Position numbers and translations under genes: made by a program | The notes under the pieces: model-generated | Database searches by the model: none | Seen by the model: the letters and a program-made list of their open reading frames with translations, nothing else | What the model was told of the DNA's origin: nothing | Shown: positions 2,897 to 50,274 of the stretch, piece by piece | Layout of the letters: each line of letters opens with the position of its first letter | Position numbering within the stretch: the stretch's first letter is position 1 | IMG/VR virus record: IMGVR_UViG_3300029286_001003 | Length of the DNA: 64,000 nucleotides | Origin: an uncultured virus (IMG/VR IMGVR_UViG_3300029286_001003) | Lineage: Duplodnaviria > Heunggongvirae > Uroviricota > Caudoviricetes | Direction: 5' to 3' (one strand)

Positions 2897-4206
2897 TTAA
2901 ATAATTCTTTTTTAAATAAACTATATTTCTTCAGATATTCTCTCAATAATTTTGGTTTTACTGGTTCTTTTTGTTCATCAATATTTTTATTCAATTTTGT
3001 TTTAAAATCATTGAAATCATCAAATTCAAATTTAAAAAATATTTCGTTGTCAATCGGATAATATTCTATTGAATAATTTTTTTTCACTTTATCATAAATA
3101 ATTCTTAAATATTTACCATCGATAGAATAATAATGTATTTCATTTTTATCATATATAACATTTTCTGGTTTTATATAATTAAAGATGTTATTTAATAAAG
3201 ACATAAAATCATTATCATCATAATCTTCTATCTTTTTATTTTTATCTGAATCTTTAAAACAATTATAATAATTACGATCAATACTATCAAGAACAGATTG
3301 ACGATTTTCACCAAATGAGTTAAATTTTAATTTTTTTGTTTTTAACAAATCGTTTTGAATATAGTAAATTAAAATAACATTATTAGATAAATCCACTTCT
3401 ATATTAATATAAGCATCTTCTTTTTTGGTTTTAATAATGTAGATTGTATTACTATTTTTTGTTTTATATTCCCCGGTGAAACTATCTGTTTCTAATATAG
3501 TTTTTAATTCATCAAAAAATACTTGGTAGATATTCTTTTGTATTTTATTTTCACCATGTTCCAGAATTTTAATGGATTTTGGATTGAATACTATTAATTG
3601 TTGTGGTTCATTGTCGTTCACAACACCTTTATTATCTACAATTCCATCATATCCTAATTTATTGAAAAATCTATTCCAAGTGATATGTGGTAAATATTTA
3701 TAACTATTTATATTAATTGTATTAGAACCTGATGTTAATACATTTCTTTTTGATGGTTCAACATTTAACATATCAAGAACATCCCATAATTTTTTATCAT
3801 ATCTTTGATTACTTTTTCCGAAGTCACCAAAGTTTATTTTGTTAAAGACATCAGATAACCCGGTTTTAATAAAAAATTGTTCAATATCATTAAGATTAAC
3901 ACTATTTATTTTTAGAAAATTTTTGGTGTTTATTTGACAAATATAATAATATTTCATCGAATATCCATATTGCATCGAACTACTATCTTCCCCAGATATA
4001 AAATTAGATGGATAAAAATAAATTCCATATGGATCATGGTGTTTTTTTTGTGGATTGATACCTAATTTATTTAAATCAGTAAAATGAACATATATATTTT
4101 TTTGATTCGAATATTTCTTTAAATTAAGAAAAGCAGTATAAGATTCTTCCTGATTGATCAAATTTTCTAATATAATAGATTCAAATATTTTAAAATTAGT
4201 TATCAT
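2893..4206 (-). CDS. Putative ADP-ribosyltransferase-fold protein with capsid-targeting-like tag
   Basis: Likely start MITNFKIFE at 4206; YVHFT...GIYFYP...GYDGI...EPQQLIVFNPKSIK resembles ART-PolyVal-type domains. Confidence 0.55.
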   Translation of the reverse strand: MITNFKIFESIILENLINQEESYTAFLNLKKYSNQKNIYVHFTDLNKLGINPQKKHHDPYGIYFYPSNFISGEDSSSMQYGYSMKYYYICQINTKNFLKINSVNLNDIEQFFIKTGLSDVFNKINFGDFGKSNQRYDKKLWDVLDMLNVEPSKRNVLTSGSNTININSYKYLPHITWNRFFNKLGYDGIVDNKGVVNDNEPQQLIVFNPKSIKILEHGENKIQKNIYQVFFDELKTILETDSFTGEYKTKNSNTIYIIKTKKEDAYINIEVDLSNNVILIYYIQNDLLKTKKLKFNSFGENRQSVLDSIDRNYYNCFKDSDKNKKIEDYDDNDFMSLLNNIFNYIKPENVIYDKNEIHYYSIDGKYLRIIYDKVKKNYSIEYYPIDNEIFFKFEFDDFNDFKTKLNKNIDEQKEPVKPKLLREYLKKYSLFKKELFN

Positions 4207-5194
4207 TTCCGTATTCATTTTTTAATATTTCCATCATTTCAAGATGATTATGAACTGTTTTTATTTGATAATTGTGTTCCAAACCATATTTAGTTACTAT
4301 TTCGTCAATATCCTTTTTTTCTAATCCTCTGGTTCCATAATTATGTATCGGTAATGGATCACCACCCGTTGTTTTAAAATACAAAATACTATTTCTTGGA
4401 ACTTTAAATGATTTACTATTAACCGACCATTCACCTTCATACTCGTAAACTTTTGATATATATTCAAAAGATCTTAAAAGTATTTTTTTTAATTCGTTAA
4501 ATGTTAATTTTTCAATTATATAATCTTCAACAGGTTTCCAATTTGACCAAGGATACTCACTCGTTTTTGGATATTTAGATGCTAAATCTTTAACTATTTC
4601 TAATGTAATTTTGGTAAAATCATCAAGGGTATTTATATGAAGTTGTCCTGCGTGATATAAATGATTTAATTTTTCCGTCAGTTCATATTGTGATTCATCA
4701 ATATATTTAATAACACCATTCTTATCATAGAAATATTTAAAATCCAACCCACCTTTTTTATTATGTTTAACATTATAATGTAAGTCTTGAAATATTGATC
4801 TTATTGCAGAAGAAAAAGATATATCTGTATTTTTATATATTGTAAAATTTGGTTCATTCATTGTTAATCTCCTCCAAAATTTAAAATTGTTTTTACACAA
4901 CGAATCGGTGTTAAAATATTCTATTGGTTCAATATCATTTAATTTCACAACATCAGACCCTTTCATTATAAGTAACAAATCCCTAATATCAAAAAAACTT
5001 TTACTTATTCTATAATGATCCGAAATTCCTTTTAACTGAATAAATTCCATTCTCATCAATGAATCTAATGTAGAATTTCTTTTATCTCGTTCTTGTTCGA
5101 AATGACCACTTGGTAATCTCAACACAAGATAGAACCATTTAGGAACTTCTTTTTTTACCCATTTTTTTTCAAATATTTGGAAATCTGTTATCAT
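4196..5194 (-). CDS. Hypothetical protein with capsid-targeting-like tag
   Basis: Starts MITDFQIFE; late promoter at 5203-5212; possible E-x-E motif (EYEGEW). Confidence 0.6.
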   Translation of the reverse strand: MITDFQIFEKKWVKKEVPKWFYLVLRLPSGHFEQERDKRNSTLDSLMRMEFIQLKGISDHYRISKSFFDIRDLLLIMKGSDVVKLNDIEPIEYFNTDSLCKNNFKFWRRLTMNEPNFTIYKNTDISFSSAIRSIFQDLHYNVKHNKKGGLDFKYFYDKNGVIKYIDESQYELTEKLNHLYHAGQLHINTLDDFTKITLEIVKDLASKYPKTSEYPWSNWKPVEDYIIEKLTFNELKKILLRSFEYISKVYEYEGEWSVNSKSFKVPRNSILYFKTTGGDPLPIHNYGTRGLEKKDIDEIVTKYGLEHNYQIKTVHNHLEMMEILKNEYGNDN

Positions 5195-5214
5195 AATTAC
5201 AGTATATATTAAAT

Positions 5215-5248
5215 AAAAAACCGTAAAGATTGTTCCTATCTTTACGGT
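5215..5248 (-). terminator. Intrinsic terminator of the putative ncRNA
   Basis: 11-bp perfect stem ACCGTAAAGAT/ATCTTTACGGT followed by a T-run on the minus strand. Confidence 0.8.
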
Positions 5249-5460
5249 GCCGAAATCGTAATTTCTACGACTTCTTTACTCCTTCAACACTGTTTCAATT
5301 AAATGGTTGATGAGATAAATTTATATAATGAATACTATCCCAGAAACATAAGGGATATTGACGTTTCCCAGACAAGGTGCTTCTTAGGTTTCTTATTAGA
5401 AACGTTCGTCCACAGAGCCGGCCTCCACGTCCAAAAACCGATATTCCATCGGCCTTTTGT
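5215..5460 (-). ncRNA. Unknown structured ncRNA (~240 nt)
   Basis: GC-enriched intergenic island with at least five hairpins, TTAATATATA promoter at 5463-5472 and a terminator; no credible ORF. Confidence 0.65.
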
Positions 5461-5523
5461 ATTATATATTAAATCTTTTAAGTCTGAATGAAGTTTTTTG
5501 GAATAAAAAATAATATATAGTTT

Positions 5524-6108
5524 ATGATGAATTTTTTAAAAACATTTGAAAGTTTAACTGATTATAAAGTGGAAGTTCTAACCACCACAAAAATTAGAAA
5601 AATTTATAATAAATTATATTCGAATAATATAAACTTTGATTTAAAAGATAAAATTAATTATTTTGATTATCAAGATATGAGAGGTTCGTGGGGTGGTGGA
5701 AATGATATTTATGATAAAACATTAAGATTAATAACTGCTTATAATGATAAAGACATATTGGGTATATGTAAAATTGCTTATTGGACAATGACTAAACATT
5801 TTGCTGTTAGTTATTTATCTACAAATAAAGACTATTTCCATATGGGAGTTTCAAAGAAAATATTAGAAGTGTTATTTCAATATTTTTCCGAAACATATCC
5901 CGGTGAAATATTAGGATGGTCTGGATATTCTATTGACGGTTGGAAATACCTTCATCCTAAAATTTTAGAATTATCTAAAAAATATAATGTAAAACTGGAA
6001 GAAAAAGGTATTGAATATGTTACTGGTGATTGGACCGATGAAAAAAGGGAATTATATAATAAAAGTAGGGAAGAAATTAAAAATATTTATGGTTATTATC
6101 CTTATTGA
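5524..6108 (+). CDS. GNAT-family acetyltransferase with capsid-targeting-like tag
   Basis: Starts MNFLKTFES; LGICKI...VSYLSTNKDYFHMGVSKKIL resembles GNAT motif A. Confidence 0.6.
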   Translation: MMNFLKTFESLTDYKVEVLTTTKIRKIYNKLYSNNINFDLKDKINYFDYQDMRGSWGGGNDIYDKTLRLITAYNDKDILGICKIAYWTMTKHFAVSYLSTNKDYFHMGVSKKILEVLFQYFSETYPGEILGWSGYSIDGWKYLHPKILELSKKYNVKLEEKGIEYVTGDWTDEKRELYNKSREEIKNIYGYYPY

Positions 6109-6405: not shown

Positions 6406-7380
6406 TTAGCCATATAATTCATCAATGATTCTAACAGCCTTCTCGTAGCGGATTGCCCAATCAGATCCGTTCACAATTTGAACGTTACAACCCTGTGAAA
6501 TAAGAAAATCATAATGATAATCCCTCAATTCATTTCTTCTTTCTTCATTCAATCTGGTTCCATCATCGATGTAAGGTGCATCATTTTCTAGAAAAATATG
6601 TAGATCAAATTTATTAGCTTCTTCTATCCATTCTTCGAAAATTGGTATTTTGTTGAATAAGAAATAAGAATACATTTTAGTTGTATTCAAATCTGTATCA
6701 GCAAATAAAATTTTATTTGATGTTACAATTTTCCCCTGAATGTCTTTAGCATGGGATTTTCCAATTTCCATTATCATATCAAATGTACATTCATCAGTAT
6801 TTGGACAAATCACCCTACCCCATTCCTGAACAAAATTAGTATGATACCTTTTAGCTAATTTTTCAGTCATTGTACTTTTACCAGTGGATTCTGTACCACA
6901 AATACATATTTTTTTAACAAAATATGGTTTAACAACATCCGGGATATAATCCCAGTAAACGAACGGGCTATTCCGAATCTTAGTCCCTGATACAAAGAAC
7001 TCCACGCGATCATTATCAAACATAATATGTTCAATACCCATAAATTCCGCTGTGAAATCACCATAACGTTCCGATGAGAACAAATAGTTCACGTCAGGAA
7101 ATTCTTTTTTTAACCAGTCGCCCCACATTCTAGAAATCAATTTAGACGAATATGGCACGATTGGTAACTGAATGTCAGTAATCCTCACTTCAATGTTTAA
7201 ATCGTTTTTAAACGTATCTAATAACCATCCTAGACGTTTTTTTCCGGGTATCGGATCATCATTGCCAACACAAAGTAAAACATAAAGATAATCACACTGA
7301 GATTGTGCGAATTTAATTAAAGATTCGTGCCCGATGTGATAAGGGGTGAATTTTCCAAAGACTAATCCTATTTTTTTCAT
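6406..7380 (-). CDS. nadR: NadR-type NMN adenylyltransferase / ribosylnicotinamide kinase (no HTH)
   Basis: GKFTPYHIGH (HIGH motif), SGTKIR, P-loop GTESTGKST, DDGTR. Confidence 0.92.
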   Translation of the reverse strand: MKKIGLVFGKFTPYHIGHESLIKFAQSQCDYLYVLLCVGNDDPIPGKKRLGWLLDTFKNDLNIEVRITDIQLPIVPYSSKLISRMWGDWLKKEFPDVNYLFSSERYGDFTAEFMGIEHIMFDNDRVEFFVSGTKIRNSPFVYWDYIPDVVKPYFVKKICICGTESTGKSTMTEKLAKRYHTNFVQEWGRVICPNTDECTFDMIMEIGKSHAKDIQGKIVTSNKILFADTDLNTTKMYSYFLFNKIPIFEEWIEEANKFDLHIFLENDAPYIDDGTRLNEERRNELRDYHYDFLISQGCNVQIVNGSDWAIRYEKAVRIIDELYG

Positions 7381-8237
7381 TTTGAATTATTTATATTAAA
7401 AATTTTATCAATATTTTTAAAATTATTATCCATAATTATATTATAATTATATAATTCTTTAGCCGATTTTTCTTTTAATAAATTTGTTTTTAAATGTTTA
7501 TTCCAATAATATGTTGATTTAATTTCAAAAACAACTTTTGTGTCTTTTATTTTAAAATCAATAAAATAATTATGCCTTTTTCCATCTTCTATATAACTTA
7601 TTCTTGGTCCTTTCTCGATTAATTGAAATTTATTTATAGATTCTAAATATTTTAAAAATTTAAGTTCATATGTTCCATAATAATCAATACCATTATATTG
7701 TTTGATATTTTTAATTACCCAACCACTATTGAGTTTTCTTTTACCATTTTTAAACGATTCAATCGCCGATAAACTCATTTTATCTTTAGTTTCTTGACTT
7801 CTTTTTTGTCCAATAACCTTTAATAATCTTTTTCTTGTTGATTCTTTTTCTTTTTCTTTTATTTTTTCTTTACTACTTTCCCAAGTAAACGGATTTCCAT
7901 TTTCTTCCATCCATTTTTTATGTGCTAATTTCTGATTTTCAGATGGACTAATTCCAAAATTTCCATTTCTTTCTCCCCTACATTGACATTTTTTACAATA
8001 ATGAATATTAATTTCTAAATTTAAATTTCTTATTCTACGTTCAAATATTTTTTTACAATCATTACATTTTACTTTTATAAATTTTTTTCGATAAAAACTT
8101 TTCGTTATTAATTTTGACCAATGAACTAAATAAATTTTATTAAGTTCTGGTTTAAATCCCAAAGTTTTTAACCATCTACTTGGTTGTGAATAATGAGTTA
8201 ATATTACTTCTACATTTTCAAATTTTTTTAAATACAT
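7377..8237 (-). CDS. Free-standing homing endonuclease (NUMOD3 + PD-(D/E)XK/TnsA-like)
   Basis: CxxC pairs, RSQETKDKMS NUMOD3 repeat, YE..F...YFIDF...FEIKS. Confidence 0.7.
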   Translation of the reverse strand: MYLKKFENVEVILTHYSQPSRWLKTLGFKPELNKIYLVHWSKLITKSFYRKKFIKVKCNDCKKIFERRIRNLNLEINIHYCKKCQCRGERNGNFGISPSENQKLAHKKWMEENGNPFTWESSKEKIKEKEKESTRKRLLKVIGQKRSQETKDKMSLSAIESFKNGKRKLNSGWVIKNIKQYNGIDYYGTYELKFLKYLESINKFQLIEKGPRISYIEDGKRHNYFIDFKIKDTKVVFEIKSTYYWNKHLKTNLLKEKSAKELYNYNIIMDNNFKNIDKIFNINNSK

Positions 8238-8328
8238 AAGATATTTTTATCTTATATATTAAATTTAAAAATCTAATTTTTACCATTCCATATTGGACAT
8301 CAGACTAAAAGAAATAAACACCAAGATT

Positions 8329-8359
8329 CAAATTTAATATTTTTTTTAAAATAAAAAAA
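8329..8359 (-). promoter_or_regulatory. Host-type early promoter for endonuclease-nadR
   Basis: TTTTTTTATT-N13-TAAATTTG. Confidence 0.6.
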
Positions 8360-8375
8360 TTTTAATATATATTAT

Positions 8376-8927
8376 ATGAAAAAAACTATATTATTTATAA
8401 TTTTATTTTTATTTAGTTTCATTTCTTTTGGTTTTGATCAAAAATATCCAGAACACTTTATTAATATTATGAAATCTGTTTTATTGTTTGAAGGTGGATT
8501 TTCTGATATATTAGATGATCCGGGAGGTGCAACAAATTTCGGTGTGACTCAACAAACATATGATTTTTATAGATTAAATAAAAATCTTTCACAACAAACT
8601 GTAAAAAATATAACAATAGATGAAGTTTATGATTGTTATTATAGATTTTATTATTTGTCTTCCGGTTGTGATACCCTTTCACCAGCTTTAGCATTTGTAC
8701 ATTTTGATTGTAGTGTGAATTTTGGTGTTTCCAAATCGAAAAAACTTTTTTTACAATCCATTAACAAATTAGATACTTTAGATAAAAAATTAGCATTCAA
8801 CTATATAGAAGTTAGAAAAAATGAAAGATATGAAATAGTCAAAAGAAATGAGAAAAAAAGAAAATTTTTAAAAGGTTGGCTCGCTAGGGATGAAAAAATT
8901 AGATTAATCATCGAACAATATTATTGA
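8376..8927 (+). CDS. Secreted lysozyme, glycoside hydrolase family 108
   Basis: Signal peptide; EGGF...DPGGATNFGVT; C-terminal FLKGWLAR. Confidence 0.85.
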   Translation: MKKTILFIILFLFSFISFGFDQKYPEHFINIMKSVLLFEGGFSDILDDPGGATNFGVTQQTYDFYRLNKNLSQQTVKNITIDEVYDCYYRFYYLSSGCDTLSPALAFVHFDCSVNFGVSKSKKLFLQSINKLDTLDKKLAFNYIEVRKNERYEIVKRNEKKRKFLKGWLARDEKIRLIIEQYY

Positions 8928-9525
8928 GATATTTTATTTTCAACCAATTAAACAATCCATAGATTGCCATACCTGTAAATATGATATATTCTATTCCAAC
9001 CACAAATATTCCAGAATAAAAGAATAATCCAACACAAAATATATCAGTAACTATCCAAACATACCAAGATTCAATATATTTCTTCGATAATAAATTAATT
9101 CCAACAACACTCATAATCAAAACAGTAACATCTAAAAATGGGTTTTCTGATTTCACTGGAAATATTTTATCTATATTATCCAATAATAACCACCCAAGAA
9201 TTATAGATATTATTATACTTATAAATGTTATTATTCTTTGTTTGTTCGTCATAAAAATTAATCCCTTATCTTCATCTTTATCTGTTTTCTTCCATATAAA
9301 AATTGATATTAAACATATATAGGTGAAATATATTTGTAATAACATATTAGCATATAATCCTGTGTACCAAAACAAAAAGAAGAAACAAATTTGGGCAACA
9401 ATACTTGTCACCCAGTTCCACAGGTTTGCTTTTGTTGCTAAAATAACGGATATAAAATTAAAAATAGAACCTATCAGTTCTAAATAAGTTAAATTATATC
9501 CAAATATAGTTAATACGGTTCCCAT
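8908..9525 (-). CDS. pnuC: PnuC nicotinamide riboside transporter
   Basis: About 7 TM helices; NW, LQ.YF, KYIESWYVW motifs. Confidence 0.9.
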   Translation of the reverse strand: MGTVLTIFGYNLTYLELIGSIFNFISVILATKANLWNWVTSIVAQICFFFLFWYTGLYANMLLQIYFTYICLISIFIWKKTDKDEDKGLIFMTNKQRIITFISIIISIILGWLLLDNIDKIFPVKSENPFLDVTVLIMSVVGINLLSKKYIESWYVWIVTDIFCVGLFFYSGIFVVGIEYIIFTGMAIYGLFNWLKIKYLNNIVR

Positions 9526-9574
9526 ATTTGGTAAGTTACGAAAAATAAACGGGATAAAAAAATGTAAGGGAAGA

Positions 9575-9623
9575 TTTCGTCTTTTTAGACGAAAATTAAG
9601 GAAATTCGTCTTTTTAGACGAAT
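9575..9623. repeat. Two tandem 20-bp palindromes (TTCGTCT-TTTT-AGACGAA core)
   Basis: 9575-9594 and 9604-9623. Confidence 0.85.
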
Positions 9624-9901
9624 ATTACAAGATTGTTTGATTTAGATATTTTTCTTAATTCATCATAAAATTTTCCAATATCATCATAATTTTTAAACCA
9701 AAATGTTGGATTATCAAATATGACAAATACATCATTAAATTTTTTTAATGTATCAAATAATTTAACAGTATCATTTTCTTTAAATATAATTACAAAATGT
9801 TTTTCTTTGTTTCTTCTATATTCAACAAACATTGTATCTACAATAACAACATTATCATCATAGTAATGGTCTATAAAAGACTGAATTTTTTCACTGTACA
9901 T
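9614..9901 (-). CDS. Hypothetical protein
   Basis: ORF coupled behind the TonB receptor. Confidence 0.55.
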   Translation of the reverse strand: MYSEKIQSFIDHYYDDNVVIVDTMFVEYRRNKEKHFVIIFKENDTVKLFDTLKKFNDVFVIFDNPTFWFKNYDDIGKFYDELRKISKSNNLVIFV

Positions 9902-9905
9902 AATT

Positions 9906-11909
9906 TTATAATTTAAATTTTAAACCAGTGAAGAAACAAAATTGTTCATTTACAAAATACAAAGGACTACCATCACCACCAATCATACCATTAGATAAAT
10001 ATTTCTGGTTAGTGAAATTGTTTAAATAAATATCCCATTCTCCCCAATTCCATTTTAATCCAATCGTTGCGTTTAAGATGTAATAACTTGGAATAGTATA
10101 ATCATTCTTTTGATCTATATATGACCAACTTTGATACCTACCACCCAACCCAACGACAAACCATTTATAATTATAAGTCAGTTCCGTATTGGATAACCAT
10201 TCTGGTGTCATCACTGGTGTTGATTCTGTATTATTCCAAGTGATTTTACTTTTATTGTATGAAATATTTTGTGTTAAGGTTAATCCGAAATTCCATTTAT
10301 ACTTGAAATCAAATTCCAATCCTGTTCTATAACTTTCATCAACATTAATATGAAGTGGTAATCCAGTTGGACCATATTCACCTGTTAATACTAATTCATT
10401 ATTAAACATCATATAAAATAGGTTGATATTCAAATTCATATTTTTTATAATATAACGGTATCCAAATTCTTGGTCTAAAACAGATTCTGGTTTTAAATCA
10501 TAATAGACAGCGTTACCAAGTGAATCAGATAATAGATTATCATATCCACCAAACATATCATTTCTAATTGGTTCACGATGAGTTTTACCAATAGAATAAT
10601 AAAGGATATTATGTTTTATTTTGTATTCGACACCAGCACTATAATTGAAAAAATTCCATATAAAAGGTTTCAAATAAACATCACCATTATAAACAAATGT
10701 TGTATAACGATATTGTAAATCCCCGTAGAAATTAAAATTACCAGCGTTAAAAATACCTTTTACGAAACCACTTAAATCATCCCTATATCCAGTATTTTTA
10801 TATGTATCAACATCATTTGTTGTCCCACTATGTTTCCTACTATATTTATAACCATTAATACCAGTGTAAAGATCTAAATTTCCAAGTTTAATATAATAAT
10901 TAATATTTCCACCTAAAAAATTAGAATTGAAATGGTATCCATATAAATCGGATGGTATTCCGATATGTGTTCCATCATAGGTATAAAAACCATTCAAATA
11001 ATTATAATAAATAGTATAATTAAATCTTGATTTAGTATTTATGTTATAAGTGTGGTGGAATTGAATATGATATTGATTGAAATGATCAATTTCTCTTTCA
11101 GTATTAGCGTTATATTTACGATTGATGTTTATACTATCCATTGGTACACCCATCCAAGCCAATTGATTCATTTGTTCACCAGCAAAACCAACGATTTTAA
11201 ATATATTTTTTCCAGCTTTATAATTTCCAACTATAAAAAAACTTCTGGAATGATTACCCGAATGATCTTTATATCCTTCACTTGAAATATCAGATATTGA
11301 AACATACAATCCACCTTTATTCCAATTTTTTTCAACATTGGCTGAAAGTTTAAAGGTGTTGTCACCACCCCAACCAAAATTAAATCCAACCTTTGAATCT
11401 GTTGGCTTATATGATTCAAAATTCATAGAACCAGCAAAACTAGCCGTTCCATTTTTTGTCATTCCAGTACCCCTTTGGATTTGTAACATTTCAACGGATT
11501 GAAGAAAATCCGGATAGTTGGAAAAATAACACCCCTGATCCTCAGGCTCATTCATTGGAACACCATTAAGTGTGACATTTATTCGTGTTTGATCAATACC
11601 TCTTATTCTTATATATGAATACCCCCAATCACCACCAGATTCTGAATAACTAGTAATTGATGGGGATGTACTAAGAATTATCGATGGTTCTTGACCATAA
11701 TTCACTAATCCAAAATCAGATTTGTATAAATTTTTAAAAGTGATTGGCATCAAACTTGTTGCTTGATATGGAAGAAATGCGTTGATTACAACTTCATTCA
11801 ACTTCAATGTATCTTTTGTCAATCGGTATCCGGAATCCGGGTCGGATTTTTGAGAATAAACACTAATCACTACAAACAATAGTAAAATAAGAATTGAGAT
11901 TTTTTTCAT
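9906..11909 (-). CDS. TonB-dependent outer-membrane receptor (Bacteroidetes vitamin-uptake type)
   Basis: Signal peptide ending VYSQ; LNEVVI TonB-box-like; plug IRIRG...RINVTLNGVP; beta-barrel; C-terminal GLKFKL. Confidence 0.9.
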   Translation of the reverse strand: MKKISILILLLFVVISVYSQKSDPDSGYRLTKDTLKLNEVVINAFLPYQATSLMPITFKNLYKSDFGLVNYGQEPSIILSTSPSITSYSESGGDWGYSYIRIRGIDQTRINVTLNGVPMNEPEDQGCYFSNYPDFLQSVEMLQIQRGTGMTKNGTASFAGSMNFESYKPTDSKVGFNFGWGGDNTFKLSANVEKNWNKGGLYVSISDISSEGYKDHSGNHSRSFFIVGNYKAGKNIFKIVGFAGEQMNQLAWMGVPMDSININRKYNANTEREIDHFNQYHIQFHHTYNINTKSRFNYTIYYNYLNGFYTYDGTHIGIPSDLYGYHFNSNFLGGNINYYIKLGNLDLYTGINGYKYSRKHSGTTNDVDTYKNTGYRDDLSGFVKGIFNAGNFNFYGDLQYRYTTFVYNGDVYLKPFIWNFFNYSAGVEYKIKHNILYYSIGKTHREPIRNDMFGGYDNLLSDSLGNAVYYDLKPESVLDQEFGYRYIIKNMNLNINLFYMMFNNELVLTGEYGPTGLPLHINVDESYRTGLEFDFKYKWNFGLTLTQNISYNKSKITWNNTESTPVMTPEWLSNTELTYNYKWFVVGLGGRYQSWSYIDQKNDYTIPSYYILNATIGLKWNWGEWDIYLNNFTNQKYLSNGMIGGDGSPLYFVNEQFCFFTGLKFKL

Positions 11910-13120: not shown

Positions 13121-14461
13121 ATGAAAAAATCTAATTTAAATGATACAATTAATAAATTCAATATTATACATAATAATAAATATAATTATTCACTATTTAC
13201 TAAATATATTAACATAAGGCAAAGAATAGAAATTATATGTCCAAAACATGGTATTTTTTCCCAAAAAATTGGTATGCACAAAATTGGTCAAGGTTGTCCA
13301 GATTGTAAAGCTGAAAAAATTGGTAATTTAACAAGATTTACCATCGATGAAATATTAATGAAATTTAAAAAAACACATCAAGATAAATATGATTATTCAT
13401 TATTCACCGAATATTTTAATGTAGATCAACATGCAAATATTATTTGTAAAAAACACGGTTTATTTAAACAAACAGTTCGGAATCATTACAATGGTCAGGG
13501 TTGTATGAAATGTTATAATGAAATAAGACATACATATTTATGTGATACGAAAGATAATTTTATTAAAAAAGCAAATATTGTTCACAATAATATTTATGCC
13601 TACCCATTTGAAACATATAAAAACAGTAAAACAAAAATAGAAATAGAATGTTCTATTCATGGAATTTTTATGAAAAATCCAAATTCGCATCTCAATGGTG
13701 AAGGATGTCCCCACTGTTTTTCTTCTAATGGTGAAAAAAAGATTTATTTTATTTTAAAAGGAAATAAAATTAGATTTATTACTCAAAAGATTTTTAAAGA
13801 TTGTAAATACATAAATGGTTTGCGTTTTGATTTTTATTTACTAGAATATAATTTATGTATAGAATTTAATGGTCAACAACATTATGAAATCGTTAAACAT
13901 TGGGGTAATGAATCCGATTTATTAAAAACAATAGAAAAAGATAAAATAAAAAATGATTATTGTGAAATGAAAGGCATCAAATTATTAAAAATACCATATT
14001 CAGAATTTGATAACATTTATGAAATATTGAAAAAAAATTTAAATGAAAAAATTAAAGATTTTGAAATTGAAGGTGATGTTAATTTAACTTATATCGAATC
14101 AAAGAAGATAGTTAAAGAATTGAATATAAAAACTCAAACTGAATATAATAAAAGATATAAAGAATATTTAGGATTACCATCGAGTCCAAATGGACTATAT
14201 AAAAAAGATTGGATCGGTTGGCGTGAATTTTTGGGAACCATAAATACTCAACTAGACAAAAATTACTTATCTTATAATGAATCTAAATGGTGGATTAAAA
14301 ATAATTTATCAAATATCAAATCTGAAAAATTTTGGAAATTATCAGTAATGAAAAATAAAATTCCAATTTTTATACCAAATAATCCAAAACAATTTTATCA
14401 AAAAAAGAATAGGGGTTGGTTAGGTTGGATGGATTTTTTGAATAAATTAAACACTTTTTAA
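13121..14461 (+). CDS. Free-standing homing endonuclease (CxxH-H-CxxC repeats + PD-(D/E)XK/Vsr-like domain)
   Basis: Three YDYS...ICPKHG...H..G.GCP.C repeats; LRFDFYL...IEFNGQQH; C-terminal W.GW..FL repeats. Confidence 0.8.
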   Translation: MKKSNLNDTINKFNIIHNNKYNYSLFTKYINIRQRIEIICPKHGIFSQKIGMHKIGQGCPDCKAEKIGNLTRFTIDEILMKFKKTHQDKYDYSLFTEYFNVDQHANIICKKHGLFKQTVRNHYNGQGCMKCYNEIRHTYLCDTKDNFIKKANIVHNNIYAYPFETYKNSKTKIEIECSIHGIFMKNPNSHLNGEGCPHCFSSNGEKKIYFILKGNKIRFITQKIFKDCKYINGLRFDFYLLEYNLCIEFNGQQHYEIVKHWGNESDLLKTIEKDKIKNDYCEMKGIKLLKIPYSEFDNIYEILKKNLNEKIKDFEIEGDVNLTYIESKKIVKELNIKTQTEYNKRYKEYLGLPSSPNGLYKKDWIGWREFLGTINTQLDKNYLSYNESKWWIKNNLSNIKSEKFWKLSVMKNKIPIFIPNNPKQFYQKKNRGWLGWMDFLNKLNTF

Positions 14462-15090
14462 TAAAATATTATCAATCAATCCGTATTCTTTAGCTTCATA
14501 TGAAGTCATCCAAAAATCTCTATCTGAATCTTTTTCAACCTTTTTATATGGTTGTCCGGAATGAATAGAAATAATTTCATAAAGTTCCTTTTTTAAAATA
14601 TTAATTTGTTTAGCGGTAATTTCAATGTCTGATGCCTGTCCATCTGCAAAACCAAGTGGTTGATGAATCATAATCCTAGAATGTTTCAATGCTGCTCGTT
14701 TACCTTTTGTTCCAGCACACAAAATGACTGATGACATTGATGCTGCTATACCACTACAAATGGTTACAATATCTGGTTGAATATATTGCATTGTATCATA
14801 TATGCTTAAACCGGAGTAATATAGATTTGAATATCCTTTTTTGAATCAACTGATTCCAAAAATAAAAGTTGTGCCTGAATAACATTTGCAACATAATCAT
14901 CTATTGGTGCATTTAAAAAAATTATTCTATCAAGCATTAAGCGACTAAATACATCAAGAGTTGTTATATTTAATTGTCGTTCTTCAACTATCATTGGAGA
15001 AATATAATTATTTGATATTGATTTATATTTATCTAATGTTAAACTATTAATACCCATATGTCGGGTAGCATATTTTGTAAATTCGTTCAT
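14447..15090 (-). pseudogene. clpP: ClpP protease split by a ~22-nt deletion/frameshift
   Basis: DVFSRLMLDRIIFL...DIQIYI, then SGLSIYDTMQ in another frame; NSPGGSV missing; AASM, IHQP, DRD catalytic motifs intact. Confidence 0.9.
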
Positions 15091-15093
15091 ATT

Positions 15094-16953
15094 TTATTTT
15101 TGTTTTTTGTAAAGATCTTCTAATATATCAATAACTTTATCTATTTCGTCATATTTTTTGTCCATTTCATCCATTTTATCAGAAACCAATTTGGTTATTT
15201 CTTTTACTTTTTTATCTATTTCTTCTTCGTTTTCTCCACTAAAATATCCTTTACCTCTTACAATATCATCCCATTCAGATTGAATTGATTTATTTCTTAA
15301 ATCAATTATATTTTTTAACCAATCTGGACTACCTTTATTAATTTTTTTAATACTTTTGTAACCACGATAATCCAAAAATACACCACAACCCTGTTTTCCA
15401 ACTATACCCAAATCTTTTTCAGTCTTTTCCATCTTTTACTTTTTCACCATTTTTGAAATCAATAGTCATTCCGAAACAAACATTAAATCCTGTTGATGTT
15501 TTATTTGTTTGAAAATCGATTTTACTTATTTTGTGACAAATAAAATGAGTATCACCACTTGATAATACCAAATCTCTTTTTCTTAATTTGAATATTTTAT
15601 CTGATGTTATTTTTTCAATTGGTTTTTCCCATGAACATTTAATTGTTTTGTGAGTTCTCCAATCAATGACACCAGTACTCTTTATAATATCAATTTTGGG
15701 ATAAGTTTTAGTTCCTATTTTTATTTCACTCAATTCGGTAAATCCTTTTTTCATTATATCGGATTCTTCATCTTTTTTCTTTATCAGAAATTGTTCTTGA
15801 AATTCTTTTAAATTTTTTTCAAAATGTTCCAATGATTCGTTAATTTCATCAGAAAAAACAGCACAAACTGGTGTTCCGTTGAATTCCTTATTTCTTAAAT
15901 TGATTTCTATTTTACCGTTTGGATGTTTATCAAAGGTGAGATAACCATCACCAAACTTCATGTTTAGAATAACTTTTGTGGCATATTTCTTTTTAAGTTC
16001 AAATATTTTGAACATTTTATCAAAAATATAATCATATTGTTCTAAAAATTCTTCTATATCAAACATTTTAAGGTTTTTTAGAAGATATCAAAAAATCAAA
16101 TTCTGGATTATTACTTGGAATTTCATATCCGTAGTGACATTCTGACCAATCTTCTCCACACGGTTGTAAATCTTCTAAATTACACCCACATTCTGAATCT
16201 GGTTGATACAATCCTGTATATCCATTCTTTACCATAAAGGATTTTAATCCTTCAATTGTTTTTCTATTATTTGCTTTCACAATCCATTATATTTCTTAAT
16301 ATCAACAAACTCATTATATTTTACAGTGCCATCTTTTTTATAAATAGCAACCGGACGATTCAATAATGGTTTATCTTCATTATCAAATCTACCATCCTGT
16401 TCATATATAACATAAATATCAACATTTTCATTAACAGCGATTGTTTGAAGTTTAGCTTTTGATAAAGATAAATCAATATCACCATACCAAACTTTTTCAC
16501 CGTTTATGACAATATTTGAGTTAAAAACTGGTAAATTTTTTGGTTTCATTTTATGAAATCCGGTTTTGGATCCACTAATCATCATGGAAATCATTCCTAT
16601 TTCTTTTATAAGAATATCAGTATAATTATTATGTATCATTTTTCTATTTTGAAATTATTTTTAAACTCATCTTCTGTAAACCAATCGGTAATTGTTAAAC
16701 TAGTATTTGTCATTTTATATTGAATAATATAATTATTTGGTGGAACAATATTTTGATAATCACCATCTGTACAAAAATAAACAAGTTGTTTACTTTTAAC
16801 ACTTGTAAATTTTTTATTAATAAGTTTTTCTTCTGTCCACATTGTATACGAAAAATCAGAAAAATTTTCTTCTATAAATTTGGCTGATTTTTCACTACCA
16901 TCATAAAAACAAGTTTTTATTGTTTTATCGTATCTACATTTTTCTACATTCAT
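15094..16953 (-). CDS. Five overlapping hypothetical genes (15094..15432, 15419..16066, 16068..16280, 16277..16639, 16636..16953)
   Basis: Tightly coupled ORFs between pncA and clpP. Confidence 0.6.
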
Positions 16954-17639
16954 ATTGTTTCAATATTTTTGTAAGATTCAACAACTAAAATGTTATATTT
17001 TTCTTTCAACACTTCAACGAATTTTTCTTGTCCTTCGATTGATCCAATTCCACGAACAGCTCCAAGATTAAGGATAACCTGAAAACCAGCATCAGATAGA
17101 TCCATGACTGTATGACCCACACAAAGAGGATTTTCTTCAACATTAAGAGCCAATCCACCAACAATTACAGTTGCAATTTTGTGTTGATTTAACCATTCGA
17201 TAAGTCCGGTAGAGATTGTTTTCGTCATATTATGATAACATGCAGAATATGGATGTAGATCAGCTTCAAATCCTTTACCAACAAAAAAATCATATTCTGT
17301 CATTTTTGGTAATCCATCGAGAAGTTCCATCCCCAATGTTCCTGATTCACAATGTCTGTTCCATCTAATATCAACATTAGGCAATCCAACAACAGATAAT
17401 TGTGGATTTTTTTCGGTTGCAATCCAAAGTGCATTTTTTGGATGAACATCTTTTGATACAATTTTATATTTGGATATTAAATTTTGACCATTAAGTTCAT
17501 CAACAATTTTATCACCATCTGGAACAGGGAGTTCATCTGGACAAATAGGTGTAAATCCCCTTTGTGGATCGACATTTAACGATGCTGTACTTTCTTTTAC
17601 AATTAATACTTTATCGATTTCTGAAAATTCTAAGTTCAT
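16950..17639 (-). CDS. pncA: Nicotinamidase (isochorismatase family)
   Basis: VDPQRGF, KDVH, W..HC..GT.G, KG...PYS, VGGLA...CV. Confidence 0.9.
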   Translation of the reverse strand: MNLEFSEIDKVLIVKESTASLNVDPQRGFTPICPDELPVPDGDKIVDELNGQNLISKYKIVSKDVHPKNALWIATEKNPQLSVVGLPNVDIRWNRHCESGTLGMELLDGLPKMTEYDFFVGKGFEADLHPYSACYHNMTKTISTGLIEWLNQHKIATVIVGGLALNVEENPLCVGHTVMDLSDAGFQVILNLGAVRGIGSIEGQEKFVEVLKEKYNILVVESYKNIETI

Positions 17640-17687
17640 ATTTATATATTTTAGTTTTTAATTTTAGTTAAAAAATTGGATTTTGTT

Positions 17688-18536
17688 TTATTTTCTTATA
17701 AATCCCGGTGGTGATAATCTTTTATGTTGTCCCGAAACAATCATATTTTCAATTTTTTGAACGAGTGAATATTCAAATGAAACACCACTTAATTTTGCAA
17801 AATTTAATATAATTTCACTTAAATTTTCATAAATGTTATTAATTGATGTTGATTTTACACAATTTTCTCTAAAAATAAGATAATTATCGATGTCTTTATA
17901 TAAATATCCGATTTCATTTTCATCTGTTTGATCATCGAAAAGTCCAGCCGATGGAATTCTATTTATAATTTTTTCTGGAATTTTTTTACCATTAATTTCA
18001 ATTTCTTTCGCCATTTGAAAAATTTCAAATTTAAAAAAATCAATTATAGGTTCAACATCAACACCACTACCACCATCTCCACACTTTGTAAAATATGATA
18101 AATATTCTTCTGTTTTATTTGTTGTTCCCAAAACTAAATAGTGATTTGATTCTGCAACAGATCTCAATGTTGTCATTCGAAGTCTAGCTTTAATATTTGA
18201 AGAAACCAAATTGCTTTTTAATTTATTCGTATTTTTAATTGTTTGGTCTAAAATACAATGAAGTGCATTATCTAAATTAATTTGTATTGTTTTTACACCA
18301 AAAGTATCAGCAAGTAATTGTGCATCTTCAATATCTTCGGTTCTTAATCTTTCTCCAAATTTAGTACAAGGAAGAATAATACCTAAAACTTTATCAGTAC
18401 CCATTGATTTAACAGCCAAAGACATAGACACAGCCGAATCAATCCCACCAGATAATCCGATTACATAACCATCAAAACCAGTTTTATCACAATATTCCTT
18501 TAACCATTTTGATGTGTTTTTAATATTTTCTTTCAT
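17688..18536 (-). CDS. nadE: NH3-dependent NAD synthetase
   Basis: GLSGGIDS, NIKARLRM, GTTNKTE, YFTK.GDG, PSAGL...QTDE, HKR. Confidence 0.95.
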   Translation of the reverse strand: MKENIKNTSKWLKEYCDKTGFDGYVIGLSGGIDSAVSMSLAVKSMGTDKVLGIILPCTKFGERLRTEDIEDAQLLADTFGVKTIQINLDNALHCILDQTIKNTNKLKSNLVSSNIKARLRMTTLRSVAESNHYLVLGTTNKTEEYLSYFTKCGDGGSGVDVEPIIDFFKFEIFQMAKEIEINGKKIPEKIINRIPSAGLFDDQTDENEIGYLYKDIDNYLIFRENCVKSTSINNIYENLSEIILNFAKLSGVSFEYSLVQKIENMIVSGQHKRLSPPGFIRK

Positions 18537-26332: not shown

Positions 26333-27594
26333 GTAAAAAATTAACAACAGATGAATTTATCGAAAAGGCTAAAAAGATTCACGGTGATAAGTATGATTAT
26401 TCTTTAGTAGAATATATTAATTGTAGAATAAAGGTAGAAATTATATGTCCTAAACATGGTGTATTTAAACAAAATCCACACAGTCATTTACAAAATCACG
26501 GTTGTCCATATTGTGGTGAATCTAAAAAATTAACAACGGAAGAATTTATTGAAAAATCTAAAAAAGTACACGGTGATAAATATGATTATTCATTAGTTAA
26601 ATATAAAACCAATCACAATAAAGTAAAAATTATATGTCCGAAACATGGTGAATTTAATCAATCACCAAATAGTCATTTGAGAAAATCTGATTGTCCAAAA
26701 TGCTCTGGTAATATTAAATTATCACCAGAAAAATTTGTTGAAAAAGCTAAAAAGATTCACGGTGATAAGTATGATTATTCATTGGTTAAATATAAAAATA
26801 CTCACAATAAAATAAAAATTATATGTCATATTCACGGAATATTTGAACAAAATTTATATAATCATTATAAAGGGGGTAATTGTCCTAAATGTGTAGGAAA
26901 GATACTTTTTACAAAAGAAATATTTATTGAAAAATCTAAAAATGTTCATGGTGATAAATATAATTATAGTAAGGTATTTTATAAAAATAATAATACAAAA
27001 GTAAAAATAATATGTCAAATTCATGGTGAATTTGAACAAACACCTGTTAGTCATTATGGTGGTTCTGGTTGTCCAAAATGTAGTGGGAAAAATAAAACCA
27101 CAAAAGATATAATTGATGAATTTAAAAAAGTACACGGATGTGAATATGATTATTCACTTACTGAATATATAAATAGTAAAACTAAAATAAAAATAATATG
27201 TCCGAAACATGGTATATTTCTTCAATTATCAGATAATCATAAACATGGAAATGGTTGTCCTATTTGTTTGAAAAGTAGGGGTGAAATGAAAATATCAAGA
27301 ATTCTTGAAAGACACAAAATAGAATTTATTAGAGAATATAAATTTAATGATTGTAAATATAAACAAAAATTACCTTTTGATTTTTATTTACCGGAATATA
27401 ATACATGTATTGAATTTGATGGTGAACAACATTTTAAATCCATGAAATTTTTTGGTGGTGAAAAATCTTTTGAAAAAAATAAAATTAGAGATCAGATTAA
27501 AAATGAATATTGTAAAAACAATAATATCAAATTAATTAGAATAAAATTCGATGATGATATAAATGATAAATTGATTGATTTATTTAAAACTTAA
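26329..27594 (+). CDS. Free-standing homing endonuclease (five zinc-binding repeats + PD-(D/E)XK domain)
   Basis: Five HGxxYDYS...IC..HG.F.Q....H....CP.C repeats; LPFDFYLP...IEFDGEQH. Confidence 0.85.
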   Translation: MSKKLTTDEFIEKAKKIHGDKYDYSLVEYINCRIKVEIICPKHGVFKQNPHSHLQNHGCPYCGESKKLTTEEFIEKSKKVHGDKYDYSLVKYKTNHNKVKIICPKHGEFNQSPNSHLRKSDCPKCSGNIKLSPEKFVEKAKKIHGDKYDYSLVKYKNTHNKIKIICHIHGIFEQNLYNHYKGGNCPKCVGKILFTKEIFIEKSKNVHGDKYNYSKVFYKNNNTKVKIICQIHGEFEQTPVSHYGGSGCPKCSGKNKTTKDIIDEFKKVHGCEYDYSLTEYINSKTKIKIICPKHGIFLQLSDNHKHGNGCPICLKSRGEMKISRILERHKIEFIREYKFNDCKYKQKLPFDFYLPEYNTCIEFDGEQHFKSMKFFGGEKSFEKNKIRDQIKNEYCKNNNIKLIRIKFDDDINDKLIDLFKT

Positions 27595-28752
27595 AACCTT
27601 TTTGGCTAGTTCAATCATTTCTTTATTTCCGGTATATTTACCTTCATCATCCGATAATTTTATTGCTGGAATCCATTTATCATCAACCAAAACATCAGAT
27701 ATTTTGATAACCATATTTAACGGTTTAACCCCCGGTACATCATTTGACAACCACGTTCCAATACCGTAAGATGTCCTAATCTTCCCCCTGAATTCATTTT
27801 CGATATCTAATATTTTTTTAATAGAATTAATATTATCGGAGAAAACAAGTGTTTTTGATTTGATGATAAAATCGTCCAGATTTAACTTCTTATAATGGTT
27901 TAATATCTTATAACCAATATCAATTGGAGATCCACTATCCAATCTACATCCATCAAAAAGTTTTGCGTAATAAGTATTAAAGTCTTTTAGAAATACATCA
28001 GTTCCCATTAAGTCTGGGAGACAAATTCCTAAATCTCCGTGATATATACCAATCCATGAATTTAATGTTTTTTTGGTAGAATCACTAAATCCATATAATA
28101 CATTGTGTACCATCCCCATTTCGTGCGCCATCGTGCCAATCGGTTTAATACCATATTTCTTCGCGAAATACACATTACTTGTTCCCACCATGTTACTACC
28201 AGCAGATTTCAAAAGATCATTTATAACATAATCTTGATTATCAAATGAAAATCTTCTTCTGGTTCCAAAATCAACGAACTTAATATCATTTTGATGGAGT
28301 TCCCACCCCTTGACCATATTTATTTTAGTGAGAACATTTCTTTTCGGTAAAGTAATACCCATCATTTCATAATACAATTCTGAAATCATAGATAAAATAC
28401 GACATTCCCACAATATAGTGGTTCTCCAAAATCCTTCAATCTCCAATTCATCGATATTTTGACTAATCTTCACTTCGGATGGATCAAATCGATAATTTGA
28501 AATATACCAAATAAAAAATGGATTAAAATATCTAATATTACTCAAATACTCAATTTCATCTGGTGTGGGAATTGCTTCTCTTGAAAGTTTTACAATTCTT
28601 TCTTTCAATTTATCAGCCATTCCATCAGGCCAAACCGTTTTCCCCCGGTTAACAAATTTATACTTAACCCTTACATTTGGGAAAAGTTGGATAACCAAAT
28701 TAAGCATTGAAAATTTGTACAAATCGTCATCTAAAAAGCTATATTTTTCCAT
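27580..28752 (-). CDS. pncB: Nicotinate phosphoribosyltransferase
   Basis: DLYKFSM, DFGTRRR, GTSN, GTMAHE, RLDSG, VFSD, GIGT, IKLSD..GK. Confidence 0.93.
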   Translation of the reverse strand: MEKYSFLDDDLYKFSMLNLVIQLFPNVRVKYKFVNRGKTVWPDGMADKLKERIVKLSREAIPTPDEIEYLSNIRYFNPFFIWYISNYRFDPSEVKISQNIDELEIEGFWRTTILWECRILSMISELYYEMMGITLPKRNVLTKINMVKGWELHQNDIKFVDFGTRRRFSFDNQDYVINDLLKSAGSNMVGTSNVYFAKKYGIKPIGTMAHEMGMVHNVLYGFSDSTKKTLNSWIGIYHGDLGICLPDLMGTDVFLKDFNTYYAKLFDGCRLDSGSPIDIGYKILNHYKKLNLDDFIIKSKTLVFSDNINSIKKILDIENEFRGKIRTSYGIGTWLSNDVPGVKPLNMVIKISDVLVDDKWIPAIKLSDDEGKYTGNKEMIELAKKVLSFK

Positions 28753-34401: not shown

Positions 34402-34851
34402 TCAATAATTTTTTTTAATATCCCTATCAGAATCCCTTTTTTTAATAGTTTCGCGTTTATCATATTGTTTCTTCCCCCTTGCCAAACCAACATTTATTTT
34501 GATCTTACCTTTTTCATTATACTGGATAGCAAGTGGAACTATCGTTACCCCCTTAATTTCAAATTCCTTTTGAAATTTAGATAGTTGTTTTTTAGTCATT
34601 AAAAGTTTCTTATCCCTTTTCGGATCGTGATTTTGAAACCCACCTTCATATTCAGAAATATGAAGATTTCTTATCCACAATTCATTACCTATAAAAAGAC
34701 AATAGGAATCCGTAAAATTTACTTTCCCACCCTTGATAGACTTTACTTCTGAACCCAAAAGACATATACCCGCAAGCTCGGAACTAAGTATTTCGTAGTT
34801 GAAATAAGCTTTTTTATTCTTTAATATCAATTTGTCTTTATCACTCTTCAT
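34402..34851 (-). CDS. smpB: SsrA-binding protein SmpB
   Basis: NKKAYFNY, AGI.L.GSEVKS, RDKKLL, GKKQYDKRE. Confidence 0.95.
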   Translation of the reverse strand: MKSDKDKLILKNKKAYFNYEILSSELAGICLLGSEVKSIKGGKVNFTDSYCLFIGNELWIRNLHISEYEGGFQNHDPKRDKKLLMTKKQLSKFQKEFEIKGVTIVPLAIQYNEKGKIKINVGLARGKKQYDKRETIKKRDSDRDIKKNY

Positions 34852-37063: not shown

Positions 37064-37732
37064 ATGATGTTAGATATGAAAAATGAAAAAACTGAAAAAA
37101 AATTAGAAATTTCATTTGAACAATTTGAATATGAATATGAACATACTACTTTTGGATTCGAAAAATGGAATGAAAAAGGAAGAGAAGGTTGGGAAATGGT
37201 TCAAAGAGTTTGGACATCATCTAGTGATATTAATATAATATGGAAAAGAAAGTTGAATCATAAAAATATAGAAGTGTCAGATGAATCACAAGAAATATCA
37301 GATATTGAAGCTTTCAAAAATCTAGCAGAAATATCTAATGTATTCGGTGGATTGGATTATCATCAAGATATGAAAAATGAAAAAACTGAAAAAAAATTAG
37401 AAATTTCATTTGAACAATTTGAATATGAATATGAACATACTACTTTTGGATTCGAAAAATGGAATGAAAAAGGAAGAGAAGGTTGGGAAATGGTTCAAAG
37501 AGTTTGGACATCATCTAGTGATATTAATATAATATGGAAAAGAAAGTTGAATCATAAAAATATAGAAGTGTCAGATGAATCACAAGAAATATCAGATATT
37601 GAAGCTTTCAAAAATCTAGCAGATTGGTTAATAACAAATAAAAGATCTGTTTTTTTAGAATCAGATATTTCATTAGAAGATAAGAAAAAAATATGTTATA
37701 CACTTAATATCAGTACAACAATACTTGAATGA
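37064..37732 (+). CDS. Hypothetical protein containing an exact internal duplication
   Basis: 86-aa block with a G.EGWE.V motif present twice. Confidence 0.5.
   Translation: MMLDMKNEKTEKKLEISFEQFEYEYEHTTFGFEKWNEKGREGWEMVQRVWTSSSDINIIWKRKLNHKNIEVSDESQEISDIEAFKNLAEISNVFGGLDYHQDMKNEKTEKKLEISFEQFEYEYEHTTFGFEKWNEKGREGWEMVQRVWTSSSDINIIWKRKLNHKNIEVSDESQEISDIEAFKNLADWLITNKRSVFLESDISLEDKKKICYTLNISTTILE
37072..37623 (+). repeat. 258-bp exact direct repeat (37072-37329, 37366-37623)
   Basis: Identical copies 294 bp apart with a 36-bp spacer. Confidence 0.9.
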
Positions 37733-50170: not shown

Positions 50171-50274
50171 TGAAAATGTGTTTTTTTTGTATATATAAAT
50201 TTTTTTACATCAACTATTTGTTGTAATTTTGTAATCTAATTTTAATATATAAGGGAAAATAATTTCCTTATTAT

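Follow-up and report, generated by a model that had tools for sequence, protein, structure and literature searches.

A solitary omegaRNA-type gene in a lake phage genome and its predicted guide resembling a tnpB promoter

How does a compact RNA unit, richer in GC than its surroundings and furnished with what appear to be its own promoter and terminator, come to stand alone between two protein genes of a phage, and what might it do there? The unit lies in a stretch of 64,000 nucleotides of an uncultured virus (IMG/VR IMGVR_UViG_3300029286_001003), hereafter the window, which is part of a large AT-rich phage-like genome present in lake and sediment runs. A first-pass annotation of this DNA had described a discrete structured non-coding RNA of a novel class and had proposed that it could be a packaged, decoy or antitoxin RNA. 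Its physical description stands: at the level of the sequence, a discrete structured non-coding unit with promoter motif and terminator is supported (Table 1). The five hairpins lie where they had been placed (5454-5436, 5403-5388, 5357-5336, 5310-5284 and 5274-5252), as do the long-range pairs (GACGU 5431-5427 with ACGUC 5364-5360, and UGGAC 5412-5408 with GUCUG 5373-5369) and the 11-pair terminator-like stem (5248-5220); two terminator-like sites were found against a mean of 0.2 in shuffles. The GC content does exceed that of the surroundings, being 36% over 5215-5472 and 46% in the scaffold defined below against 25% in the window, and a value of 36% is reached by 6 of 1275 overlapping 258-nt windows. 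The promoter motif said to precede the RNA is a copy of TTAATATATA at 5472-5463, a motif that occurs 13 times in the window where 3.0 copies are expected. The minus-strand fold of the unit has z = -3.5, with none of 200 shuffles equally good; because the plus-strand fold is also strong (z = -3.0), the strand is not fixed by energy alone, and it is homology that fixes it.

Table 1. Coordinates of the RNA unit, its parts and the two flanking genes within the window
Feature	Positions	Strand	Remark or basis
RNA unit	5215..5472	minus	structured; ~240 nt in the earlier reading
Promoter motif GACTT-N6-TTTAATATATA	5463..5484	minus	predicted; type seen inside the IS left end driving tnpB
TnpB omegaRNA scaffold, 127 nt	5328..5454	minus	relic of tnpB 3' end plus IS right end
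Stem 1; loop GGAAU (5447-5443) = 5' strand of predicted pseudoknot	5436..5454	minus	role by analogy to ISDra2
Stem 2 (GACGU/ACGUC) around stem 3 (5412-5408/5373-5369) and stem 3b hairpin (5403-5388)	5360..5431	minus	covariation
Single 3' hairpin, stem 4 equivalent	5336..5357	minus	folding only
Right-end motif TTCAT; 3' strand of predicted pseudoknot; scaffold/guide boundary	5328..5332	minus	alignment
Predicted guide TATATAAATTTATCTCATCA	5308..5327	minus	starts right after the right-end motif
Tail hairpin, pairs guide positions 9-20	5275..5319	minus	fold and unpaired probabilities; occupies the place of the tnpB leader hairpin in full elements
Second tail hairpin	5252..5274	minus	fold
Intrinsic terminator-like stem, 11 pairs plus U tail	5215..5248	minus	predicted
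Downstream 332-aa gene, outside the RNA	4196..5213	minus	own TTTAATATATA motif at 5213-5203; no Pfam or PHROG family
Divergent 194-aa gene beside the promoter	5524..6108	plus	no Pfam or PHROG family

No Rfam family accounts for the unit. At the Rfam gathering score no family was found for it, by E-value there were 8 chance-level matches (best E 0.9), and ARAGORN gave no tRNA or tmRNA, in agreement with what had been claimed. Readings as tmRNA, tRNA-like RNA, RNase P or SRP, which had been weighed from motifs, were dropped once homology to an insertion sequence (IS) emerged; these and other Rfam families gave no covariance-model or ARAGORN match, and IS homology was found instead. Among GenBank phages, blastn returned 5 records, all short AT-rich chance matches; a 15-nt core pattern was met at 118 loci in viral_contigs with no blast match over about 29 nt; and a search of genome_contigs gave 9 matches, none with omegaRNA or tnpB context. 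A 62-aa open reading frame on the plus strand (5303-5491) and a 66-aa minus-strand frame were rejected as genes, as the minus strand holds the relic of a tnpB tail.

The neighbouring genes, which the first-pass annotation had taken as a clue, have no bearing on the origin of the RNA, and those elsewhere in the window are recorded here for their own sake. Genes of NAD salvage and uptake lie at 6406-11909, 16950-18536 and 27580-28752, with products that include a nicotinamide-nucleotide adenylyltransferase, an NMN transporter, a TonB-dependent receptor and a phosphoribosyltransferase, and the window also has open reading frames that are, by their motifs, presumably NadE- and PncA-like. The gene at 34402-34851 (minus) belongs to PHROG 6791 (function unknown) and its product is presumably SmpB-like; ARAGORN found no tmRNA in the window. 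A presumably ClpP-like gene at 14447-15090 (minus) falls into two open reading frames (94 and 114 aa), which points to a frameshift or a split. At 37064-37732 (plus) a 222-aa open reading frame contains an exact tandem repeat of about 83 residues, either a recent duplication or an assembly artefact.

What, then, is the RNA? It is almost certainly the omegaRNA and right end of a lake-phage IS200/IS605 family of the tnpB-only kind. The first clue came from contigs of four runs: deep ones match 5361-5454 alone, their differences are concentrated in a single hairpin loop, and their 5' flank reads as what is presumably a TnpB C-terminal motif. A covariance model (R1) built from 19 relatives, with the window copy left out, matches the scaffold from 5454 onward at 107.3 bits and an E-value of 5.5e-24, E-values of this model being rough, and full-length copies of the family score 148-178 bits. 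The scaffold is 84-87% identical to IS right ends over about 100-115 nt, and tblastn places within it a C-terminal TnpB relic of 21 codons with a stop. The scaffold core pattern occurs at 12 viral and 21 metagenome loci; at L125, L130, L148, L152, L158, L167 and L168 the RNA and the 3' end of a long tnpB frame overlap, some of the tnpB frames in relatives ending at a contig edge. The protein of L125 has the Pfam domains OrfB_IS605, Cas12f1-like_TNB and HTH_OrfB_IS605, and a TnpB of the resident lineage (P0002) matches the solved TnpB entries 8bf8/8h1j (E 2e-62). Scaffold-like contigs reach depths of 39-182, and the window variant is found at 2-3 (runs X4 and X5) or is absent (X3). Records G003-G006, which match 20 kb of the window only over short stretches or at 72% identity, were treated as relatives, and no omegaRNA was found in a related 211-kb record (G008). 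The proposal of a novel RNA class is thus rejected, since 5454-5328 corresponds to a TnpB omegaRNA scaffold ending at the right-end motif TTCAT, and nothing was found in support of a packaged or antitoxin RNA.

The fold of the scaffold agrees with this identity. Twenty distinct rows were fitted to an ISDra2-like model (stems 1, 2, 3 and 3b and a GAA/UUC pseudoknot) after PMC10097598; 98.6% of 558 cells are paired and 10 of the 28 pairs have double changes, a level matched by none of 500 shuffles, and slid controls pair at 30-45%. The covariation check suggested with the first-pass annotation thus came out positive for stems 1, 2, 3 and 3b. Stem 1 is paired in 99.3% of its cells, with double changes in 3 of 7 pairs. 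Within columns 4-100 of the alignment the window copy has six private changes: two convert the outer pair of stem 2, A-U in 19 of 20 rows, into a G-C found only here, three fall in the tip of stem 3b, and one in stem 3 breaks a terminal G-U pair. An unsampled subfamily could have been the source of the G-C pair. The TTCA of the right-end motif is invariant in 20/20 rows and its last base is T in 18 and A in 2. The strands of the predicted pseudoknot, GAA in the loop of stem 1 and UUC at the 3' side, are likewise present and invariant in 20/20 rows, and because pairs that never vary give no covariation signal, the pseudoknot, assigned by analogy, is compatible with the alignment and not proven by it. 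In alignment A3 most relatives have two hairpins at the 3' end and the window copy has one. By homology, fold and boundary the RNA is a member of the TnpB omegaRNA class.

Compared with its family, the window copy has been stripped of its mobile parts. It lacks tnpB, the left-end hairpin and the terminal right-end hairpin, and it keeps the promoter motif, the core fold, the TTCAT boundary and the terminator. It is not an intact IS1341/IS605 element, there being no tnpB open reading frame in cis beyond the relic, nor a mobile mini-element of the PATE kind, with no left-end hairpin upstream and no terminal right-end hairpin. No IS left-end hairpin was found in the sequence between the 194-aa gene and the RNA (the upstream sequence of L161), and L002, a 57% relative of the 332-aa gene, has no omegaRNA upstream. 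The promoter offers a hint of descent: a GAC(T/C)T box stands ahead of 1 of the 22 TAATATATA sites in the window, that of the RNA itself, against 5 of 5 IS promoters compared. On this count the promoter motif of the RNA, 8 nt ahead of stem 1, probably derives from an IS left end. Beyond the guide, the tail showed no significant similarity to tnpB leaders (126-983 of 1000 shuffles as good), nor, in a second test, to tnpB leaders or the 5' domains of mini-elements (80-482 of 500 shuffles). One contig of run X5, at depth 2.3 and possibly in error, differs at 5259 and keeps a G-U pair.

Members of the family itself range from full elements through mini-elements that have both ends (L150, L163) to decayed copies (L153, L165, L155, L179, L218), and TTTAA precedes 7/7 distinct left ends. 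In the minis L150, L153, L163, L165, L179 and L218 a structured 5' region of about 150-200 nt replaces tnpB between promoter and scaffold; it has a long hairpin, and blocks of its sequence are common to these minis. TTTAA is retained in the promoter of full elements and of intact minis; ATTAA, GTTAA or CTTAA replaces it in the decayed minis L153, L165, L179, L149 and G010:406, which would fit an escape from promoter-directed guides. At L123/L159 a tnpB 3' fragment with a whole omegaRNA lies directly behind the stop of a gene that is presumably ribonucleotide-reductase-like.

Next to the scaffold comes the predicted guide, whose start was set at 5327 because the flanks of the family diverge right after TTCA(T/A). 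The regular occurrence of TTTAA before the left ends makes it the likely TAM. When TTTAA plus the guide was compared with sequences at hand, the best match was the family's own internal tnpB promoter, at 17/20 with 14 of the first 15 nt matched. Among 29 distinct TTTAA-TATATA sites from the window and the phage loci, the top 7 are all IS-internal promoters, with 17, 16, 15, 15, 14, 14 and 13 of 20, and 21 non-IS sites score 8-12 (counts that treat L163 as IS); in the promoter of a further full element, L139, the seed extends over 9 nt, yet the ungapped score is just 10/20. The comparison of IS with other sites gave p = 5e-4, in a test of 7 IS sites against 22 others with the mini-element L163 among the 22, and it overstates independence as the IS promoters are mutually related. 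The 17/20 is also near the chance ceiling, since another of 19 guides reached 16/20 among 1852 TTTAA sites. Of the top 7 sites, 6 have a mismatch at guide position 7, and the predicted fold of the full transcript leaves most of positions 9-20 base-paired. A search of 2.9 million viral contigs returned no exact match to TTTAA plus 17 nt of guide, and what is known of the phage genome contains no intact target promoter; when omegaRNA ends with this guide behind them were sought, 8 matches came up, namely the window's own record and 7 without scaffold. TTTAA and the first six guide bases together make the phage promoter motif TTTAATATATA, which has 9 sites in the window where a 6-nt seed fit could be harmful, and the RNA's own promoter matches its guide with TTTAA and a 7-nt seed. 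A blast match of the guide region at 50192-50219 was dropped for want of TTTAA in front. Separately, at 52056-52071 (plus) TTTAA is followed by an 11-nt perfect seed to the guide of the mini-element L153 in the same record; 2 of 3000 shuffled guides reached >=11, a count uncorrected for the 19 guides examined. This site lies inside a gene (51630-52220) that is presumably NUDIX-like, judging by a motif.

Any such RNA would need a TnpB, and a candidate partner is close by. A full-length tnpB of 387 codons (G001:C1:10597-11760 (+), equal to L172:1501-2664) is found in the same record at a distance of about 5.5 kb from the RNA, immediately left of where the window begins. Its product, in which the RuvC residues D/E/D are retained and 4 residues are deleted after RuvC-I, shares 62-63% identity with the L125 family, which carries the scaffold type of the window; P0002, P0123 and P0126 are close relatives without the deletion, and we infer that the 417-aa P0123 is a second, undeleted TnpB of the same genome. 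Judged from its sequence, the gene looks immobilised; it has no left end and no target of the guide in its promoter. Its omegaRNA is shortened (89 nt, 24 bits) to a form that still has stem 1, stem 2 and both pseudoknot strands, and it has the 3' end GTATTCAT in common with the window RNA. A mini-element of the same record, G001, has ATTAA instead of TTTAA at its promoter.

From these observations we propose that the window holds a solitary, immobilised omegaRNA gene whose product would restrain, in trans, the IS family that it comes from, a reading that we rate somewhat short of an even chance. IS200/IS605 elements are described as inserting 3' of their TAM (10.1101/2023.03.14.532601). The likeliest origin of the guide is a nested insertion, in which one IS copy would have entered at the TTTAA inside the promoter of another copy and thereby acquired the guide; such an insertion leaves a right end followed by a tnpB leader, which is the order found here. 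Later deletions may have removed the coding parts and the ends and fused the promoter to the scaffold. A transcript of the gene would then be processed down to scaffold and guide and taken up by a TnpB produced elsewhere, either resident or from a co-infecting relative; protein-free omegaRNAs are reported to act in trans and to need TnpB in trans (PMC10691335). The complex would bind without cutting, because the match consists of a 6-9 nt seed with later mismatches, and would block transcription of tnpB and of mini-elements, perhaps also of the RNA's own promoter through the 7-nt seed. For TldR, the TAM and about 6 nt are reported as needed for binding, and promoters are repressed (10.1101/2023.11.30.569447), and the TnpB of ISDge10 with a 10-nt guide is described as binding without cutting (PMC13507860), from which it follows that a partly matched guide should block, and not cut, a tnpB promoter. 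Besides the limits of the guide match given above, it counts against a brake that the RNA is seen in one lineage only, that a G-U pair of stem 3 is broken, and that the nearby TnpB has no more than 62-63% identity to the family carrying this type of scaffold. In a variant that we consider doubtful, the phage would have domesticated the transposon guide into an 'anti-OMEGA' RNA that turns a captured TnpB onto the tnpB promoter. It is equally speculative that this TnpB, captured from a resident or co-infecting IS, would silence or cut the element and so protect the phage from TnpB-driven homing.

The proposal has to be weighed against an RNA without any function, which is a serious possibility and would make the locus ordinary IS debris. 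Nested insertion of IS into IS, followed by deletions, would have left a promoter, a scaffold and the first bases of a second leader, and the guide would match the tnpB promoter merely as its landing site, with no selection on the RNA. Truncated and mini copies are indeed abundant in these phages, the window copy scores lower than full-length ones (107 bits), the guide start is followed by a hairpin, which is true of tnpB leaders too, and there is neither a second lineage with this guide nor an intact target in the known part of its own genome. Decay of this kind is harder to reconcile with deletions that all spare the core, leaving in place stem 1, both strands of the pseudoknot, stems 2 to 4 and the boundary exactly at TTCAT, with the close spacing of promoter and stem 1 and a terminator that closes the unit, and with the compensatory pair that 2 of the 6 private changes form.

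The remaining explanations grant the RNA a different role. It is improbable, although an intact scaffold with its own predicted promoter and terminator would suit it, that the RNA serves as a decoy, made in excess to soak up the TnpB of a resident or co-infecting IS and so to spare the empty alleles of the phage, with an incidental guide. The guide is partly occluded and has no perfect target, and the depths of the scaffold-like contigs are consistent with abundant family copies in the same habitats; a decoy leaves unexplained why the best matches of the guide are all IS promoters. The decoy of the first-pass annotation survives solely as a TnpB-binding RNA. It is slightly less probable still that the guide cleaves; with TnpB in trans, its targets for cutting would be either IS copies at their promoter, amounting to anti-IS activity or homing of IS into IS, or, in the manner of ordinary omegaRNAs, empty alleles in sibling phages. 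Cutting of vacant sites is described as the established role of TnpB guides (10.1101/2023.03.14.532601), the best target is matched over most of its length, and an unsampled subfamily may match perfectly; against cleavage stand the want of an exact target in the viral contigs searched, the seed mismatch at position 7 and the report that single mismatches sharply lower cleavage by ISDge10 TnpB (PMC13507860). The earlier reading, in which a new and unrelated class of RNA is packaged or serves as an antitoxin, could appeal to the missing Rfam match and to a promoter motif common to neighbouring genes, yet its view of the origin is largely refuted by the identity to IS right ends and the model match, and no toxin family was found among the 4 nearest flanking open reading frames scanned, so that we regard it as very improbable indeed.

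If the RNA does brake its family by repressing tnpB, an OMEGA element would be under RNA-guided control by a guide that the host has kept, and a selfish guide would have turned into a regulator by a simple path. In the 'anti-OMEGA' reading, self-silencing guides could arise quite generally in one step, through nested insertion at the TTTAA of the promoter itself. With scaffold, predicted TAM, guide, candidate target and candidate proteins all in hand, a specific and cheap test is available. PMC10691335 describes standalone omegaRNAs as having no known role, and a natural omegaRNA aimed at a tnpB promoter was not found in the literature searched, that is titles and abstract openings, without supplements and with few subscription papers.

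Among known systems, the ISDra2-type omegaRNA, or reRNA, as described in PMC10097598, is the nearest in form: its size is similar (116 nt against 127 in the window), it has four stems, a GAA strand and 3' UUC able to pair, and a guide directly 3' of the right end, and the TnpB of the window's family is homologous to solved TnpB. The window RNA differs in having no tnpB in cis, a predicted promoter and terminator of its own and no right-end hairpin; the TAM given for ISDra2 is TTGAT against the predicted TTTAA, and guides of that type are described as pointing at the vacant site, that of the window at the promoter of the element. Standalone omegaRNAs and PATEs (PMC10691335; 10.1101/2023.03.14.532601) are likewise protein-free and in need of TnpB in trans, and the family does have true minis with both ends (L150, L163); those sources describe mobilised units with transposon ends, whereas the window copy is without both end hairpins and has a guide that resembles the tnpB promoter of its family. 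In TldR systems (10.1101/2023.11.30.569447) guide and TAM also overlap a promoter, the TAM plus about 6 nt suffice, and the system is phage-borne, but the protein is described as nuclease-dead, encoded beside its guide and directed at host genes. The window locus has no adjacent protein, the nearby TnpB retains D, E and D, the candidate proteins are encoded elsewhere and keep RuvC D/E/D, and the candidate target is tnpB. Phage Cracr or crRNA-like RNAs, in which a solitary phage guide is reported to reprogram an RNA-guided nuclease to silence its own promoter (10.1101/2024.10.29.618823), use CRISPR-Cas effectors and repeats where the window RNA has a TnpB scaffold; it is not a member of that class, would work in a similar way if functional, and in the 'anti-OMEGA' reading, if true, would be the TnpB counterpart of these RNAs. 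Finally, the Arc repressor of IS605 elements (10.64898/2026.09.24.754181) is reported to brake the element by repressing the tnpB promoter; there the brake is a protein that the element itself encodes, whereas the candidate brake of the window is an RNA outside the element.
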